Positions 16,479 to 37,730 of a stretch of 64,000 nucleotides of DNA are shown here, one piece after another. This DNA is from Candidatus Methanomethylicia archaeon (GTDB lineage Archaea; Thermoproteota; Methanomethylicia; Nezhaarchaeales; B40-G2). A program made the position numbers and the translations under genes. The stretch lies in NCBI GenBank assembly GCA_029259155.1, contig JAPDJI010000017.1, positions 1 to 64,000 on the forward strand, read 5' to 3'. The notes under the pieces are model-generated. The model was not told the origin of the DNA. It was given only the letters and a program-made list of their open reading frames with translations, and searched no databases. Each line of letters starts with the position of its first letter. Positions within the stretch are counted from its first letter, which is position 1.

Positions 16479-17759
16479 GTGTCTCCTTCAACTAAGACTT
16501 CCAGGCTGCCAGGTTTCCATAAACTACCACTCCCTCAGAGGCTGGAGATAGTTAAGGAGTTTGCCGGCTTATCTGATGAGGAGGTTAAGCTGCTAATTGC
16601 TGAGGCAGGGCTTAAACTTGAAGTTGCGGATAGGATGGTGGAGAACGTAATAGGCCTCATGCCGCTACCCCTCGGAGTAGCGGTAAACTTCTTGATCAAC
16701 GGCAAGGACTTCCTCGTACCCATGTGTATAGAGGAGCCCTCTGTGATAGCTGCTGCCAGCAACGCTGCTAGGATGGCTAGGGTTAAAGGAGGATTTAAGG
16801 CAGGCTCCACCGCCCCCGTCATGATCGGGCAGATACAGGTAGTGGACTTACCTAATCCCTTTGAAGCTATGTTACGGGTCCTTAGAGCTAGGGAGGAGGT
16901 CCTTGAGGCTGTTAACCGAAAAGACCCTGTCCTCGTTAAGTTAGGTGGTGGGGCGAGGGACCTTACGGCTAAGGTGCTGGATACTGTTGCTGGCTACATG
17001 TTAATCGTCGAGCTCCACGTTGACGTGAGGGACGCCATGGGGGCTAACGTCGTTAATACCATGTGTGAAGCTGCTGCCCCCTTAATCGAGGACTTAACTG
17101 GAGGTAAAGTGCTTCTACGTATCTTAACAAATTTGGCCACGGAGAGGCTGGCATGGGCAGAAGCCGTATTTGATAAAGAGGTGATAGGAGGCCCCGAAGT
17201 GGTGGAAGCCGTGTTGAAAGCCCATGCCTTCGCCCTAGCTGACCCTTATAGGGCAGCTACACACAATAAAGGCATCATGAATGGGATAGTAGCGGTGGCT
17301 CTAGCTACGGGTAACGATACAAGGGCGCTTGAAGCTGGAGCACACGCTTACGCCGCGCGTACGGGGCGCTATCAGCCCTTAACTCATTGGTGGAGGACAG
17401 CGGAAGGAGACTTAGCTGGAAGAATAGAGCTGCCACTGGCGGTAGGCGTAGTAGGCGGTGCAACTGGAGTGCACCCTATAGCCAAGATAGCAAGGAAAAT
17501 ACTTGGAGTAACCACAGCACAGGAGCTAGCTGAGGTCATGGCTTCCGTCGGCCTAGCGCAAAACTTCGCTGCTCTAAGAGCCTTAGCCACCGAAGGCATA
17601 CAGCGTGGCCACATGAAACTACACGCAAGAAACCTAGCCATCGCTGCAGGCGCCACAGGTGAACTCATAGACCTCGTTGCTCGGAGGATGGTGGAGGAAG
17701 GCAACATAAGGCTAGACCGCGCCCGAGAGATACTCGAAGACCTTAAAACCAAGGCTTAG
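16479..17759 (+). CDS. mvaA: HMG-CoA reductase, class II
   Basis: ENVIG, EEPSVIAA, DAMGAN, THNKGIMNG, GLAQNFAALRAL.TEGIQRGHMKLH. Confidence 0.92.
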   Translation: MSPSTKTSRLPGFHKLPLPQRLEIVKEFAGLSDEEVKLLIAEAGLKLEVADRMVENVIGLMPLPLGVAVNFLINGKDFLVPMCIEEPSVIAAASNAARMARVKGGFKAGSTAPVMIGQIQVVDLPNPFEAMLRVLRAREEVLEAVNRKDPVLVKLGGGARDLTAKVLDTVAGYMLIVELHVDVRDAMGANVVNTMCEAAAPLIEDLTGGKVLLRILTNLATERLAWAEAVFDKEVIGGPEVVEAVLKAHAFALADPYRAATHNKGIMNGIVAVALATGNDTRALEAGAHAYAARTGRYQPLTHWWRTAEGDLAGRIELPLAVGVVGGATGVHPIAKIARKILGVTTAQELAEVMASVGLAQNFAALRALATEGIQRGHMKLHARNLAIAAGATGELIDLVARRMVEEGNIRLDRAREILEDLKTKA

Positions 17760-17943
17760 TCGCTTCCATCCACCTCAAGACCACCCATTTAAAATTTAAA
17801 TAAGCTAGTAAAAAATGATGATGTGTCAACCCGCCATAAATTAAAAGAGCTTCTAAAGCCACAAAACTACGATTTAAAGTAACAAAGCCCAAGAACTAAG
17901 TAAAACAAATAAAAACTAAATCATTTCTAAATGAGAAACCTTC

Positions 17944-18006
17944 AAAAAAAGCTTATTTCCAAGAAAAAACCCTAAAAAACGTTAAAAAACAGAAAAAAGA
18001 GAAAAA
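17944..18006. repeat. Helically phased A-tracts
   Basis: A5-A7 runs start at 17944, 17964, 17974, 17984, 17993 and 18002. Confidence 0.75.
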
Positions 18007-18069
18007 TTCTATGTAATTTTTCTTCAAATTATTTTCAGTCTATCCTTCTTTAACCAACCATATACTTAA

Positions 18070-18083
18070 CGAAATGCTTATAT
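18070..18083 (+). promoter_or_regulatory. BRE/TATA promoter of cren7
   Basis: CGAAATGC followed by TTATAT; GAGGTGA RBS at 18110-18116. Confidence 0.6.
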
Positions 18084-18123
18084 CATACGAAGGTCGAAAA
18101 ACCATCACAGAGGTGAAACACGC

Positions 18124-18264
18124 ATGCCCAAGTGTCCAAAATGTGGAGCTGATGTAGCCACTCCAACCAAGAAATGGACCCTAGCACCCAAAGGCCGCAA
18201 GCCAGTCACAATAGGCCTATTCAAGTGTCCTAATGGGCATTTCTTTAGAGCAGGCGTTAAGTAG
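18124..18264 (+). CDS. cren7: Cren7-like chromatin protein, zinc-ribbon variant (46 aa, absent from ORF track)
   Basis: Hand translation [46 protein letters not shown]; W-x-LAPKGRK-x-V-x-IGLFK..G..FR is the Cren7 core; RBS, TATA and T7 terminator all present. Confidence 0.88.
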
Positions 18265-18292: not shown

Positions 18293-18406
18293 ATGGATTT
18301 ACATGAGGCCTGAAGCAGCAGGTAGCCTAAACCACGCGTGGAGTGTCCTTCGACACTACAGGCCTCTACCAACGCCTCAACGCAGAGATGTCTAAGGAGC
18401 TGTTCC

Positions 18407-19474
18407 TCAAGGCCCCTCCCGCCTCCGCCTAGCCTGGGCTTTTGACCTCTGCTTGACCCCGGCCTCGGCCAGCTGCTTAGAGTGCCATACACAGTGGTCT
18501 ACGAGCCTCCCCACCTCCTCTACGAGGGAGCGAGCAGCCTCCACCCCCCAGGGCTGGATGGCTAAGCGAGCTGCTCGAAGTAGAGCCTCTGCCTTGAGGA
18601 GCTTCTCGTAGTGCCTGGTCCTAGGGGCCACCTCCTCTAGGAAGCGTAAGGCGTGGCAGTCGGTTAAGCCGAGCGTGTGGCTGACCACCACGTCCCCGCC
18701 CCTCTCCCTAGGCTTGGACACCGAGTGGTCTACCTCGAAGCCCCTCTCTAGGAGCCCCCTCCAAGCGGGCTCCACGAGGCCCCAGTCGTCGTTGATTAGC
18801 TCAACCCTAACCTTGAGGCCCGACCGCGTAAACCAAGCCTTCAAGCTACTCTCCCCCTCGAAGAAGCTGGTCATGAACTCCCAGAACTGCTCGTCGTCGC
18901 TCACGTCCAGCGTCAGGGGCTCAGCTAGGAAGGTGAAGCTCTCGTCGAGGAGTATGCTTATCCGCCACTCGTACTGGCCGGTCTTACGGTTGTAGAAGGG
19001 GAGCTTGTTGAAGTGCTCAGTGTACGGCCTGAATAGCTCGTGGAACGCCTGTATTAGCCATGGGTTGGGGGTGGAGGTGGTGACCTCTACTTGGCCGTGG
19101 TGGCGCCTGGCGTGGCCTTCGGCCGCTACGAGGCAGTGTAGGCGTACGCGCTTGACTGGGTCTCCGTCGAAGGGCTTCTTGGCGAAGCGGGTCAGCTTAG
19201 CCTTCAACGCCTCTAGGCGAGGGCGTCTAGCTACACCCAGCCTCTCCATCATCCGCCTAAGCCCCCTGCCGTCCACGCCCAGTAGGCGGGCGATGTCAGA
19301 GCTGCTTAGCCCAGCCCGCCAGTATAGGTCGTTGAGAAGGGCTGCTAGGCGCTGGTCTCCGCTTAGGTCTAGGCGCTCCACCGCTCGCCTAGCCTCCTCG
19401 CTCAGCAGGCGTAGCACGTCCTCCGACACCTTCAACACCCTACGCCCAGCCCGGCTAAGCCGCAGCTCAGCCAC
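18407..19474 (-). CDS. HTH plus double-motif LAGLIDADG homing endonuclease-like protein
   Basis: LYWRAGLSSSDIARLLGV HTH; degenerate LAGLIDADG helices LHCLVAAEG and FMTSFFEGES. Confidence 0.65.
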   Translation of the reverse strand: MAELRLSRAGRRVLKVSEDVLRLLSEEARRAVERLDLSGDQRLAALLNDLYWRAGLSSSDIARLLGVDGRGLRRMMERLGVARRPRLEALKAKLTRFAKKPFDGDPVKRVRLHCLVAAEGHARRHHGQVEVTTSTPNPWLIQAFHELFRPYTEHFNKLPFYNRKTGQYEWRISILLDESFTFLAEPLTLDVSDDEQFWEFMTSFFEGESSLKAWFTRSGLKVRVELINDDWGLVEPAWRGLLERGFEVDHSVSKPRERGGDVVVSHTLGLTDCHALRFLEEVAPRTRHYEKLLKAEALLRAARLAIQPWGVEAARSLVEEVGRLVDHCVWHSKQLAEAGVKQRSKAQARRRREGP

Positions 19475-19919
19475 GCCCAGCCACCTCCTCCCTAAGCCAT
19501 GACTCGAAGCTGGATAGGCTGTGGAAGGCGCGGTCGACGCTTCGAAGCACTAGGCGACAGCGCTCGCGAAGCAGGGCCTCGTCAGCCCTAGGGGCCTCCA
19601 CCAAGGCCAGCCCTAGCGCCCCAGGCCTAGCCACCCTCAACGACCTAAACTTGAACTCGATGAAAGCCGCCTTGCGGACAGCCTCGTCAACCCCGCGGAA
19701 CCCAGGCTTCAAGCTAAGGCAGCACTCCAAGAACCCCTCACGGCCGCCCAGCTCAAGCCTAAAATCATAGAACAGCCTCCACCCACCGATGTCCACGGGA
19801 AAGTCCCGCTGAAACACCACGCCGAACTCCTCCAACACCGACATCACAGCCTCCTCCTGCCAAGTAGGCCCCACACAGCGCCTAGCACGGACAACCCAGC
19901 TAGACAAGCCACCACCCAC
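19467..19919 (-). CDS. PD-(D/E)XK superfamily (DUF559/Vsr-like) nuclease
   Basis: TWQEEAV...L...G..F.R.F, YDF, FLEC pattern; 8-nt overlap with the downstream LAGLIDADG gene. Confidence 0.5.
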   Translation of the reverse strand: MGGGLSSWVVRARRCVGPTWQEEAVMSVLEEFGVVFQRDFPVDIGGWRLFYDFRLELGGREGFLECCLSLKPGFRGVDEAVRKAAFIEFKFRSLRVARPGALGLALVEAPRADEALLRERCRLVLRSVDRAFHSLSSFESWLREEVAGRG

Positions 19920-19978
19920 CAGCCCGTCGGGGAAAGATATTTAAGCTCTGCGGAGAAAGTATTTAGTCTGTGTACTTT

Positions 19979-21619
19979 ATGTCGGTTCAGCGCGTCCTCG
20001 AGGAGCTTAAGCGAAGAGGCCGGGCCACGGCGAGCGAGCTGGCCGTGGCGCTCGGGCTTAGCCGGAACTGGGTGTGCGCCTGCCTCAAGGACCTAGAGGC
20101 CCGAGGCCTGGTTAGGGCTGTGGAGGTGGCCAGCGGGCGCCGCGGTAGGCCTAGGAGGCTGTACTGCGTTGAGGAGCCGCCGAGCTTCCTCGAGGAGAAT
20201 TGCCGTAGCTGCGCGCTGTTCCACCCTGTAGATGGGTGTAGGCTTGGTCGAGGCGCGGCGGCTGGCTCGACTGCCTGCGAGCTCTACGTGCCGCGTAGGC
20301 GGGTGTTCCATGCCTGGAGGCTTCGCCGAGCCGTCAAGGGCTACCTATGCCTCGTCTGCGGCAAGCCAGCTGTGCCGCGCCCCCCTTCGCTCAACCCTTC
20401 CTTCTGCCTCAACTGCTTGACCAGCTACCGCTTAGCCTACTGGAGGCACGGCGACCCTAGGATACGCGTTAGGCCGGGCGTCGAGGACCTGGTTAAGGAG
20501 AGGGGCGGCGTGGCGGTCGAGGCCTCCCTCGACGACCTCCCCAAGGCCAGGCTGTTCGTAGGCGACCTGGACCGCGTCGTGGTTGAAGGCGTGGCCTTGA
20601 TCGTGGAGACGAGGCTGCCCGTAGGCGGCGTCAGGAGGCTCGTCTACCGCTTAGACGAGGTGGAGCGTAGGGTGCTCTACTATCGATCGCGCCAGGTCGA
20701 GGAGGCTCAGCGAGACCTGGACGAGCTGGCTGAGCTAGGCTTTCAGCTAGTTAAGTCCCCGCCCCCTGAGCCAGCTGGGCTCTACGAGGCCTTGGTGAGC
20801 CGCGGCGAGCGAAGCGAGGAGGCTAGGAGGCTTCTATGGCTCGGCAACGCGGTGAGCCACTACGTGGCCTGCTGTAGGCTAGCTAGACTCTACGGAGTGG
20901 GCGTTGAGCCTCCGCTACACTACCTTCGAAGGGCGTTGAGGGAGGCGGACTACGGGTTTCGCTACGAGTCAGCCATAATGAGGGCCTACTGGGCCGCCTA
21001 CAAGGAGGCCCTACGTAGACTAGGCTTCGAAGCCTCCAGCCGAGTTAAGGCGAGGCTCCCCCGCGAGGAGGCCTTGACGCCGCGGCGAGCCATAGCCCCA
21101 GCCTACGACCCAGTCAGCTCCATGATAAACTACGTGCACTCGAGAATCCTGAGAGCCGCTGAGGCCTTGGAGCCAGGCCTAGCCGGCCCCATCGGGCTGA
21201 TCCATAGGTTCTCGAAGGCTGGGAAGTGGTGCCGTAAGCACGCCATGTACCTAGACGCCACTGAGCCCTTGAAGGCAGTGGGCAGGGAGCTACTGCTCGA
21301 CGCCTTGAAGCGCGGCGACGTGGACCTAGGCGGCGTCGAGGAGGTTAAGGGCAGCCTTGGAGGGAGGCTCTACGCCTTAACGTCTCGAGCCGCCCAGGCC
21401 TTGGAACTAAGGGTGGTTAAGCCTAGCCTGGAGATGGAGTTGATCTACGCTGGGCGCTTGACCACGGCCCGCGTAGCCTTAGAGGAGGCCCTTAGGGGGT
21501 TGAGGAGGCTTGAGGGCTTCAAGCCACTGGTCTTCGCAACTAGGGAGGACCTAGACGACGTCGAGTACGCCCTAAGGGGCTATGGAGAGGCCTTAAGCTC
21601 GCTCCTAGGCGAAGCATAG
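19979..21619 (+). CDS. cas1: Solo Cas1-like integrase with N-terminal wHTH and two Cys4 modules
   Basis: YESAIMRAYW, DPVSSMINY, GLIH and YLDATEPLK match the Cas1 E/H/D-E catalytic motifs; a beta-rich Cas1-like N-domain precedes them; ATG at 19979 (ORF track starts at 19970). Confidence 0.75.
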   Translation: MSVQRVLEELKRRGRATASELAVALGLSRNWVCACLKDLEARGLVRAVEVASGRRGRPRRLYCVEEPPSFLEENCRSCALFHPVDGCRLGRGAAAGSTACELYVPRRRVFHAWRLRRAVKGYLCLVCGKPAVPRPPSLNPSFCLNCLTSYRLAYWRHGDPRIRVRPGVEDLVKERGGVAVEASLDDLPKARLFVGDLDRVVVEGVALIVETRLPVGGVRRLVYRLDEVERRVLYYRSRQVEEAQRDLDELAELGFQLVKSPPPEPAGLYEALVSRGERSEEARRLLWLGNAVSHYVACCRLARLYGVGVEPPLHYLRRALREADYGFRYESAIMRAYWAAYKEALRRLGFEASSRVKARLPREEALTPRRAIAPAYDPVSSMINYVHSRILRAAEALEPGLAGPIGLIHRFSKAGKWCRKHAMYLDATEPLKAVGRELLLDALKRGDVDLGGVEEVKGSLGGRLYALTSRAAQALELRVVKPSLEMELIYAGRLTTARVALEEALRGLRRLEGFKPLVFATREDLDDVEYALRGYGEALSSLLGEA

Positions 21620-21703
21620 AGGCCCAGTTGAGGCTGCTTGAAGCGGCATGCACGACCATTGTCCACGAGCCTTCCGTGAACAGGGGCTGGGCATGGAGGC
21701 TAG

Positions 21704-21895
21704 GTGCACAGGTATGGAGAGGAATGCGTTGAGCAAGGGCATGTATATGATCCCGCCCCTATGCCTATGAAGTGGGCGGCGATGGCTAATAGGAGGCCGC
21801 TGCCTAGGGAGGAGCTGGTCAGCGGAATGGCCGAGGTAGTGGAGTACGGCGTGGCCGTGGACCCCCCTTCAATCTTCAGGGGTGGAGTAAAATAA
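21704..21895 (+). pseudogene. Possible gene fragment at the right side of the island
   Basis: 63-aa GC-rich ORF with no recognisable domain, followed by a terminator. Confidence 0.25.
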
Positions 21896-21900
21896 GCGTG

Positions 21901-21931
21901 GCCACTGCTCAATAATGTGGCTTTTCTTTTT
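21901..21931 (+). terminator. Hairpin plus T-tract terminator
   Basis: GCCAC-N11-GTGGC followed by TTTTCTTTTT. Confidence 0.55.
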
Positions 21932-22128
21932 ATATTTCCACACCAAACAACACGATCGGACCTCGGCTACAAGCCTCTGTTAAGGTTTCTTAAGACAGTT
22001 CTTTGTGGAGTTGAAGCTCACACACCTAGGTTCCTTGTCAGCAGTGAGGTTTAGATCGCGCGACTATCCTTCCTAGGAGTGGAAATACTTATTGAAGGAA
22101 GCTGCGATTAAGATACGATGGATGATTT

Positions 22129-22551
22129 TTATATTAGGTTTTTCATGAATAATGCGCGTTGAGCTTTAATGAGGTTTTCAAGCGTGGACGAATTGATGAG
22201 GTTTAGGACGGCTTTTCCGATGGCGAGGAAGCCTGCTGGGATTAGAGCTCCCGCGAGGATGATGGATGATAGCCATTTAGGTGAATCTGTCAATAGGTGG
22301 CCCAGTGGGTTTTCTTCTGGGTCGTGTATATCCCAGTGTATCCTATAATGATCTTTGAACTCGACGATGTGTAGGCTCCTCCCGTCCTTAAGCTTCATCC
22401 TGTAGTCTGCTATCTGTCCTCTTGGTATTCCCAGACTACGTTTAAAGAACGTGGTTTGCGTGGGGTGAGGGACAAGCTGTTTATCGACTATGACTTCTTC
22501 GTGCTCTCTTTTCCTTAAAACCTCTTCAGCTATACTCGACCAGTCCATCAA
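22129..22551 (-). CDS. Conserved archaeal hypothetical protein with a C-terminal TM helix
   Basis: GQIADYR, DGR.LH..E..DHY..HWD..DP...PLGHL..D.P then a hydrophobic stretch. Confidence 0.6.
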   Translation of the reverse strand: MMDWSSIAEEVLRKREHEEVIVDKQLVPHPTQTTFFKRSLGIPRGQIADYRMKLKDGRSLHIVEFKDHYRIHWDIHDPEENPLGHLLTDSPKWLSSIILAGALIPAGFLAIGKAVLNLINSSTLENLIKAQRALFMKNLI

Positions 22552-37157: not shown

Positions 37158-37730
37158 ATGCTTGGCAAAGTGTTGTTCCTAGATGTTGAATCCACGGGGC
37201 TTGAAGCTGAGTCATCGTTCGTGGTTGGGGTAGGAATAATGTTTGAGGATGGCTCCTGGAACCATCTTTTCGCATCCTCCATCAACGACGAAGCAAAGAT
37301 ACTCTCAGACACGATATCTACAGTTTCAGGCTTCGATACCGTAGTGACTTGGAATGGCCTAGGCTTCGACATACCCATCTTGATCGCTAGGGCCCTCAAG
37401 AACGGCTTAGACCCTAGCCCTCTACTAACACCTAGACATATAGATCTGTTCAGGATTTTCAGGGAGTTGGTTAGGCTTGGGCGTTACAGCTTAGATGACG
37501 TGTCCAAGTTCCTTGATATACCTAAGAAAGTGCAGATTAAAGGCAGTGACATGCCTCCACTATACTTGAAAGCGCTGAGTGGTGATCAAGAGGCTATGCG
37601 GGTTATCGAGGAACACTGCTATGATGACCTACAGGCCTTGAGAGAAATATTCTTTAAATCTAGGAGACTGGTGGAGGCCTATATCCTATTAACCGAAAAA
37701 ATTAAGCAGAGCTCTGCCTCCCCACCATAA
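37158..37730 (+). CDS. YprB-like RNase H/DEDD exonuclease
   Basis: FLDVESTGL, VTWNG..FDIP, HIDL, HCYDDL. Confidence 0.85.
   Translation: MLGKVLFLDVESTGLEAESSFVVGVGIMFEDGSWNHLFASSINDEAKILSDTISTVSGFDTVVTWNGLGFDIPILIARALKNGLDPSPLLTPRHIDLFRIFRELVRLGRYSLDDVSKFLDIPKKVQIKGSDMPPLYLKALSGDQEAMRVIEEHCYDDLQALREIFFKSRRLVEAYILLTEKIKQSSASPP

Follow-up and report, generated by a model that had tools for sequence, protein, structure and literature searches.

A Cas1-superfamily protein with N-terminal winged-helix and Cys4 modules, encoded in a rare archaeal gene module beside a predicted PD-(D/E)xK-fold partner

Introduction

The origin of adaptation in CRISPR (short palindromic repeats, clustered and regularly interspaced) systems has so far been argued from two settings of the Cas1 protein, spacer capture and casposon transposition. 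The catalytic residues of Cas1 are E141, H208, D218 and D221 in E. coli numbering (PMC4046053). Casposons are present in Thaumarchaeota (PMC4046053, PMC6563490), and some casposases carry extra zinc-binding or helix-turn-helix (HTH) domains, in a layout described as a C-terminal HTH and, in one case, an N-terminal zinc domain (PMC4046053). Outside both settings, Cas1-solo group 1 has been reported from Methanomicrobiales only and without the full set of active-site residues (PMC4046053), while a hot-spring study proposed "family 5" casposases, archaeal Cas1 proteins without cas neighbours, mostly without PolB and surrounded by hypothetical genes; it reported terminal repeats for several of the contigs and placed these proteins close to subtype I-A Cas1 (PMC9755687). 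Here, we analyse a Cas1-like gene, its product and the genes next to it in a stretch of 64,000 nucleotides, referred to as the window, from a Candidatus Methanomethylicia archaeon (assembly GCA_029259155.1, contig JAPDJI010000017.1, positions 1 to 64,000).

We are confident that the encoded protein is a member of the Cas1 superfamily with an intact active site, belonging to a rare and deep clade found almost only in Nitrososphaerota. It is fused at its N terminus to a winged helix-turn-helix (wHTH) and two Cys4 modules, and its gene anchors a module with a divergently oriented gene, p150, and usually a homing-endonuclease-type gene, without cas2, cas4, an array, PolB or detected terminal repeats.

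The protein resembles the casposases of families 1-4 in its fold, in its E/H/D/(D/E) site and in having no CRISPR link. Unlike casposases, its family lies apart from the casposon-type clade tested, its DNA-binding domains are N-terminal, and the module of the window has neither PolB nor detected terminal inverted repeats or target duplications. Fold and catalytic residues are also those of CRISPR Cas1, which likewise has a small partner protein alongside, whereas the family analysed here is without cas2, cas4 or array and forms a separate clade. Cas1-solo group 1 shares with it the position outside CRISPR and casposons; by description, our family is set apart from that group in keeping the four residues and living in Nitrososphaerota. 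It is likewise set apart by description from the "family 5" casposases, as the available part of that report makes no mention of N-terminal wHTH or zinc domains, or of a nuclease partner (PMC9755687). In the literature searched, we found no description of the wHTH-Cys4-Cas1 architecture or of the Cas1-like/p150 gene pair, in agreement with a previous reading of the sequence alone (hereafter the sequence-only reading), which had called the protein undescribed; a VIPR preprint mentions a "Cas1-like transposase" solely as an evolutionary idea. Below, G000 is the genome of the window, G001 belongs to another genus of the same family, and G002 and G003 to the sister genus; L-numbers denote fetched loci or contigs, P-numbers related proteins and X-numbers public sequencing runs.

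Cas1 fold and active site

Residues are numbered according to the 549-residue open reading frame (ORF) of the window (Table 1). In the AlphaFold model of this protein (mean predicted local distance difference test, pLDDT, of 69.6), residues 1-54 and ~270-549 are confident. When compared with known structures using VIA-align, residues 268-526 matched best the casposase 6opm_A (Z 17.3 over 233 residues, root-mean-square deviation 4.0), followed by the Cas1 chains 4n06_B (Z 17.1) and 2yzs and 7mi4 (Z 16.0); the range for the Cas1 chains 4n06, 2yzs, 7mi4, 7cr6, 7kft and 8d3p was 14.8-17.1. The Foldseek matches listed down to E 1.4e-3 were Cas1 or casposase without exception, with alignments to Cas1 that extend over 340-378 columns. 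The sequence-only reading had also seen a β-rich segment at ~193-262 patterned like the N-terminal domain of Cas1. Strands are indeed predicted at ~195-262, at low confidence (pLDDT 42-64), and residues ~190-262 may correspond to that domain.

The active site was assessed in an alignment of 53 rows, comprising 19 family members, 30 canonical Cas1 proteins and four casposon-type Cas1 proteins. All 53 rows have E, H and D, respectively, in the columns of E333, H412 and D429 (30 out of 30 canonical and four out of four casposon-type), and either D or E at position 432 (29 E and one D in the canonical rows, four E in the casposon-type ones). All four positions are kept in 19 out of 19 family members, together with Y340, R358, N387, G409 and K/R435. 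Since they fall in the catalytic columns of Cas1, the assignment of E333, H412, D429 and E432 to the metal site by the sequence-only reading was right, and the active site is complete. A 15-row family alignment (A2) contains further invariant residues, so that the list reads S296, A300, R303, E333, Y340, W341, R358, R362, E366, A376, Y379, I386, N387, Y388, H390, G409, H412, L428, D429, R439 and E440. The best match of the A2 profile in the PDB was the Archaeoglobus Cas1 4n06 (E 0.028), aligned across the E, N-Y, H and D motifs.

Taken by themselves, searches with the primary sequence give weak evidence for a Cas1 identity. The Pfam profile Cas_Cas1 (PF01867) matched residues 331-453 of the window protein with an E-value of 0.0076 and 15.9 bits, below its cutoff of 22.3. 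A phmmer search against the PDB retrieved wHTH proteins only and no Cas1, NCBIfam yielded HTH families only, all under their cutoffs, and a protein-atlas search with the whole protein returned generic wHTH clusters only, with scores of 0.85 or less. The orthologue P0002 exceeds the Pfam cutoff (24.3 vs 22.3 bits), and among 14 family hits scanned with PF01867, six passed the cutoff, four were sub-threshold and four had no match.

An exhaustive phmmer search of 1.84 billion representatives retrieved a single full-length relative, P0002 (52% identity), and ~14 distant proteins matching residues ~250-535 only. The family size was taken from this search and not from that of the A2 profile against an index of 5.8 billion proteins, which gave two already known proteins only, because its candidate words stemmed from the HTH end.

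Phylogeny and distribution

The relationships among the 53 rows were assessed over 342 columns with an IQ-TREE quick search under LG+C20, arbitrarily rooted, leaving out the shortened sequence of L065 and two additional ORFs from the Cas1 component. The four casposon-type rows are of family-1 type only, two of them having a protein-primed PolB at a distance of 2-8 kb in G214, and the 30 rows labelled canonical were not checked one by one for CRISPR linkage. The 19 family rows formed one clade (SH-aLRT, the Shimodaira-Hasegawa-like approximate likelihood ratio test, 99) on a long branch, apart from the canonical and casposon-type rows. Within it, the proteins of the window and of G001 are sister to 17 longer forms.

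A pattern scan of species-representative genomes retrieved 18 related loci, nearly all in metagenome-assembled genomes of Nitrososphaerota/Nitrososphaerales; one is labelled Nitrospira and another "bacterium". The family was present in two out of 62 genomes of the class of the window (G000 and G001) and in four out of 401 genomes sampled from the phylum. A third match in the class covers a 30-residue zinc-ribbon stretch only and was not counted. G001 encodes the same three genes as the window, with 52-60% protein identity, and G002 and G003, which belong to the same family as G000, are without the module.

N-terminal DNA-binding modules

The wHTH that the sequence-only reading had placed at residues ~4-66 was readily recovered. 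Pfam MarR_2 matched residues 8-58 (E 1.3e-7), as did HTH_24 (E 1e-5), and residues 1-70 of the model matched many wHTH structures with Z of 9-11. It is followed by the two Cys4 modules of that reading, C78/C81/C90/C103 and C127/C130/C146/C149 (CxxCG...CxxCxTxY). All eight cysteines are present, invariant in the comparison with the 52%-identical G001 orthologue and kept in the long-form relatives that cover these regions. Zinc binding by both modules is putative, the model having low confidence in this region (pLDDT 34-52); for the second module, the family profile matched the RpoP zinc ribbon weakly (E 0.64).

This architecture is not peculiar to the gene of the window. Long-form relatives from Nitrososphaerales, with 800-985 residues, share the order wHTH, first Cys cluster, CxxCG...CxxCxTxY ribbon and Cas1 core. 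These long forms (P0004, P0005, P0006, P0010, P0013 and P0015; L016, L017 and L029-L031) have ~300 extra N-terminal residues without a Pfam match, and a variable insert ahead of the fourth cysteine of the first cluster. In the window, the ORF start had been given as 19979. An in-frame ATG does lie there, at residue 4, and would yield 546 residues; the full ORF begins at the GTG at 19970.

CRISPR and casposon components

The absence of cas2, polB and CRISPR arrays from the 64 kb, noted from the sequence alone, was borne out. The window contains no tRNA, no Rfam family and no repeat array, and a k-mer scan detected no array on its contig or in any fetched locus. G000 (94% complete) has no match to PF01867, Cas2 (PF09827) or Cas4 at E<=1. 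In five genomes with long-form relatives, Cas2 and canonical Cas1 were found in none, and the PF01867 matches there (22-31 bits) are members of the Cas1-like family only. For comparison, canonical Cas1 is present in 104 out of 201 sampled genomes of the phylum, including G003, with ~100-310 bits.

A CRISPR-like mini-array of three repeats (27-nt repeat, ~38-nt spacers) lies elsewhere in G000, near the end of contig C22 (L040:174-331). It adjoins a molybdopterin oxidoreductase gene, and the side that was assembled holds no cas genes.

No protein-primed PolB was detected in the 18 loci or in the window, in a search that found its positive control. The three PolB genes of G000 are all on other contigs, and L021 carries a host-type PolB paralogue beyond the genes flanking the module. 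The only PolB-like match in the window, 15 kb from the Cas1-like gene, is a stand-alone exonuclease of 190 residues. This RNase-H-fold 3'-5' exonuclease (37158-37730), akin to the exonuclease domain of PolB (PF13482, PF10108), is encoded between genes for a lipoate-protein ligase and a GTPase.

The partner gene p150

The sequence-only reading had described a solo Cas1, which does not hold. According to blastp, 15 of the 18 loci, or 16 when a fragment in L018 is included, encode a p150 homologue divergently and directly upstream of the Cas1-like gene, and a homing-endonuclease-type gene is usually next to p150. The divergent layout recurs with gaps of ~45-270 nt. By blastp, no p150 homologue was detected in L024 or L025, both of which have a short Cas1-like ORF.

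The p150 protein has no Pfam, PHROG or PADLOC match. Its model (pLDDT 92.3) has a predicted PD-(D/E)xK, or restriction-endonuclease-like, fold, with matches to PspGI (Z 11.0), XisH (Z 10.6 over 119 residues), Can2 (Z 10.2) and AF1548 (Z 10.1). Foldseek returned Bax1, AF1548, Cdn1 and XisH at E-values of 1e-4 to 7e-4, as well as EndoMS-type repair nucleases. D52 and E65, candidates for the D...(D/E)xK motif, are conserved in at least 90%, with no verified conservation of a lysine in the usual place; C66 is nearly invariant and E108 invariant. A complex prediction for the Cas1-like protein and p150 (score 0.00, mark 0.32) spoke neither for nor against binding.

Strand-transfer enzymes are found beside small proteins of this fold in other systems. 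In Tn7, TnsA accompanies TnsB, a pairing of a restriction-endonuclease-fold protein with a strand-transfer enzyme that offers a functional analogy to p150 and the Cas1-like protein, and XisH is a comparable small accessory. Cas4, where present beside CRISPR Cas1, is also a PD-(D/E)xK nuclease. By analogy, p150 might act as TnsA does by TnsB, as Cas4 does by Cas1 or as XisH does in element excision. Unlike in Tn7 and XisH systems, the strand-transfer candidate here has a Cas1 fold and is not a DDE transposase or a serine recombinase; Cas4 is absent among the listed fold matches of p150; and where the partner here is a PD-(D/E)xK gene, casposons commonly carry an HNH gene.

The third gene and its replacements

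The third gene of the module, p355 in the window, is variable. Its product, an HTH and double LAGLIDADG-like protein, has no Pfam match and, in PHROGs and PADLOC, nothing beyond weak matches of the HTH region. Its protein-atlas look-alikes are all LAGLIDADG_3 (+HTH) clusters, with scores of 0.91-0.93, the top one (0.93) having 192 of 256 features in common, and the orthologue in G001 is 56% identical. In L017, L020, L028, L029, L030 and L031, the third gene encodes an HTH with one or two LAGLIDADG-type repeats. This family (A5) matched I-HjeMI, I-CvuI and I-AniI weakly (E 0.04-0.7), and hhalign gave a weak match between p355 and A5 (E 0.011, probability 3.8%). As read by eye, like the LAGLIDADG-like motifs of the third-gene proteins in general, the 310-residue product in L019 has two classic LAGLIDADG motifs and that in L027 is HNH-like, Pfam being silent on both.

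A TnpB-like insertion-sequence gene takes the third place beside p150 in L018 and L032. In these genes (L018:6733-8208 and L032:6039-7055), which replace the LAGLIDADG-type gene, zinc-ribbon and RuvC-like motifs were the basis for calling them TnpB/IS605-OrfB-like.

L076 holds a near-identical module, with ~98% identity to the window from position 18881 on. Before this point (L076:1-439 vs window 18441-18880), the LAGLIDADG-like gene has a second half that is homologous but highly divergent, which looks like an exchange of the DNA-recognition half. The breakpoint also appears as a loose end in the runs X2 and X3.

Genomic setting of the module

The three genes form a GC-rich island (57-68% GC, vs 44-52% elsewhere in the window and ~48% for the genome) among ordinary archaeal housekeeping genes. 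Its features are listed in Table 1. The Cas1-like gene is present in single copy in the 1.55 Mb genome, and the zinc-ribbon ORF on the left follows a gene for HMG-CoA reductase.

Table 1. Positions in the window of the module, its protein domains and its flanking genes (aa, amino acids)
Feature	Position	Strand	Basis or remark
Cas1-like gene	19970..21619	+	ORF, 549 aa, GTG start
wHTH, residues ~4-66	19979..20167	+	Pfam, pLDDT 86-93, structure matches
Cys4 cluster 1 (C78, C81, C90, C103), presumed zinc site	20201..20278	+	Conserved Cys
Zinc-ribbon-like module (C127, C130, C146, C149)	20348..20416	+	Conserved in covering A2 rows
β-rich segment, residues ~190-262, candidate Cas1 N-terminal domain	20537..20755	+	Strands predicted, pLDDT 42-64
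Cas1 α-helical catalytic domain, residues 268-526 (E333/H412/D429/E432)	20771..21547	+	Fold match, catalytic columns, pLDDT mostly 87-97
p150, predicted PD-(D/E)xK-fold protein, 150 aa	19467..19919	-	Model and fold matches
p355, HTH and double LAGLIDADG-like protein, 355 aa, variable third gene	18407..19474	-	Atlas look-alikes
Divergent intergenic region p150/Cas1-like gene, presumed shared promoter or operator	19920..19969 (50 nt)	.	Putative regulatory role
GC-rich island with p355, p150 and Cas1-like genes	18350..21950 (approx.)	.	Composition profiles
Left host flank, small zinc-ribbon ORF, 46 aa	18124..18264	+	Adjoins the module on its left in G000 and G001; conserved in relatives
Right host flank, 140-aa ORF	22129..22551	-	Right neighbour of the module in G000; in G001 via 55-nt contig overlap

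Rearrangement and selection

The G001 module has the same zinc-ribbon and 140-residue genes at its sides as that of G000 and is inverted between them, with the Cas1-like gene ending 43 nt past the zinc-ribbon gene. An independent metagenome contig, L077, confirmed this junction. A run of N in G001, considered as a candidate for hiding a target duplication, was dropped, as L077 shows a 55-nt assembly overlap. A second case of inversion involves L019 and L018, arranged as B-module-C, and L021, arranged as C'-module-B'. The modules of L030 and L031 share 77% DNA identity and have the L10e gene on opposite sides. Fragmented copies of the module are found in L018, L022, L026, L028 and L032, and two contigs carry two copies each.

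The Cas1-like gene is under purifying selection: between G001 and L077, it has 37 synonymous and 16 non-synonymous codon changes, with a ratio of non-synonymous to synonymous change (pN/pS) of 0.13 and no stops. Four synonymous and three non-synonymous changes separate the window from L076 in this gene.

Contigs from public runs show loose ends just after the zinc-ribbon gene and near 21698-21912, which may reflect divergent strains only. In X3-X5, the module is covered at a lower and patchier level; being contig data, this coverage is not interpretable.

A possible mobile cassette or resident host system

Our favoured reading, which we consider evenly poised, is that a Cas1-type integrase or recombinase works with p150 on its own cassette. 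The window protein itself may be a sequence-specific DNA integrase or recombinase, a role we put forward tentatively, at a little short of an even chance. From the sequence alone it had been proposed as an integrase that may carry its own site-recognition domains; the intact site and the fused domains stand, the integrase activity is conjectural, and neither terminal repeats and target duplications nor excised forms and empty sites came to light. In such a system, the wHTH and zinc modules would position oligomers of the Cas1 domain at defined DNA sites, where the E-H-D-(D/E) site, like that of Cas1 and casposases, would cleave and transesterify strands in a metal-dependent manner, and p150 would cut or trim complementary strands or ends. 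The likeliest substrate would be the cassette itself or its borders. The module would thus be a small self-rearranging or mobile island, which could reach one chromosomal slot in either orientation and provoke inversions at its edges. Movement or rearrangement is supported by the GC-rich island, the scattered presence of the module (two out of 62 and four out of 401 genomes; in G000 and G001 and not in G002 or G003), its opposite orientation within one slot in two sets of loci, the L10e gene on different sides in L030 and L031, the fragmented and double copies, and the apparently exchanged half of the LAGLIDADG-like gene in L076.

It is possible, with the balance tilting against it, that these loci represent a third Cas1-based integration system, apart from CRISPR adaptation and casposons, in which a Cas1 with its own sequence-reading domains, together with p150, excises, flips or re-inserts a small cassette without polymerase or long terminal repeats at a defined slot. 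A third deep Cas1 lineage would give an independent data point on the ancestral role and partners of Cas1. If true, the system could resemble a pre-casposon state, a naturally self-targeting Cas1 integrase. Site finding by fused wHTH and zinc modules, instead of by Cas2, a leader or terminal repeats, would make it a compact candidate for site-specific DNA insertion.

Several results weigh against a mobile cassette. Terminal inverted or direct repeats and target duplications were searched for by local alignment of the flanks against shuffled sequences, a test that very short repeats could escape. It gave scores of 18-19 in G000 (shuffle mean 17.9, maximum 25) and, in 10 other loci, none beyond the shuffled controls (best 33, shuffle maximum 31). 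Exact borders of the module could not be set because the junction segments of G000 and G001 have no significant similarity, and no empty site with precise borders was definable. On its far side, the G001 module is linked to contig C56 by an identical stretch of 55 nt in which the two contigs overlap, with no spanning contig. The contigs of four public runs contain no excision or inversion joints, which is weak evidence because contigs drop rare variants, and one run keeps the arrangement of the window across both junctions. Searches of viral contigs, phage genomes and plasmids retrieved no relatives. One conserved housekeeping neighbourhood (L10e, methyltransferase/SpoU, Pus10/SRP54) surrounds the module in several Nitrososphaerales loci, and the divergence of the module proteins is close to that of the neighbouring methyltransferase, a combination that fits long vertical residence. 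Finally, the model is poor at residues 72-268, which include the putative N-terminal domain.

Much of this is what would be expected of the main rival, a domesticated and non-moving host system, inherited vertically, in which the Cas1-like protein and p150 would have a cellular role, such as the processing of branched DNA during repair or recombination, or innate defence against viruses. The housekeeping neighbourhood kept in L017, L020, L029 and L030, with divergence in step with the adjacent methyltransferase, speaks for it, as do the purifying selection, the lack of terminal repeats and target duplications, the absence from viral contigs, phages and plasmids, and the same arrangement in an independent run. 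We nevertheless regard it as unlikely. A resident system would hardly be expected to be so patchy (two out of 62 and four out of 401 genomes), to be missing from the sister genus or to show such a strong GC anomaly in G000. Fragmented and double copies, repeated inversion exactly at the module borders and the different homing-endonuclease types filling the third slot also count against it, and neither p150 nor p355 matches a PADLOC defence family.

That the protein is a casposase left behind by a decayed casposon, after loss of PolB and terminal repeats, is improbable. Structurally, the protein matches the casposase 6opm best, on a par with Cas1, casposons occur in Thaumarchaeota (PMC4046053, PMC6563490), and PolB-less "family 5" casposases have been proposed (PMC9755687). 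Nevertheless, the family clade falls outside the casposon-type Cas1 proteins tested, neither the window nor any of the 18 loci has a protein-primed PolB (the PolB-type gene of L021 resembles a host paralogue), and the described domain layout of casposases is a different one (PMC4046053). Moreover, the same partner gene is retained across deep divergence and the Cas1-like gene is under purifying selection, which argues that the module is not debris.

Even less probable is a transcription regulator, in which the wHTH would act and the Cas1-like domain would be a non-catalytic module for oligomerisation or sensing. The wHTH is the strongest sequence signal of the protein, the Cas1-like gene and p150 have a 50-nt divergent promoter region in common, and Cas1-solo group 1 is reported without a complete active site (PMC4046053); against this, all 19 members retain the four catalytic positions together with other residues of the Cas1 motifs. 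Close to refuted is an ordinary Cas1 of CRISPR adaptation, its cas2 and array being elsewhere or unassembled: the mini-array on C22 could hint at it, and some part of the genome could be missing since G000 is 94% complete, but no cas genes adjoin that array, Cas2, Cas4 and canonical Cas1 have no match in G000 at E<=1, none of the five long-form genomes has Cas2 or canonical Cas1, no fetched flank holds an array, and the family is a separate clade scoring 15.9 bits on PF01867 in the window, vs 100-310 for canonical Cas1.

Other observations at the module and its borders

All 16 amino-acid differences between the Cas1-like proteins of G001 and L077 (L012:9165-10799 vs L077:355-1989) lie at residues 374-543; none is found in the wHTH, the Cys modules or elsewhere in the first 370 residues.

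In the module-free contigs G003:C60 and G002:C36 (L013 and L014), the segment with the HMG-CoA reductase and zinc-ribbon genes (window 16479-18264) lies in inverted orientation with respect to the PHP and right-flank genes, and one breakpoint is the slot of the module.

Downstream of the Cas1-like gene, no further gene is widely conserved across the related loci. L030 (7649-8098) and L031 (10572-11000) encode there a protein of 146-149 residues, convergent with the Cas1-like gene, 77% identical and confined to this pair of loci. DNA homology of the two modules stops exactly where this gene starts.

On the other side, a gene for a secreted-looking protein of 1438 residues is encoded in G001 (L012:3974-8290) between the HMG-CoA reductase and zinc-ribbon genes. 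In the window, the same interval is just an AT-rich spacer (17760-18100, 29-34% GC).

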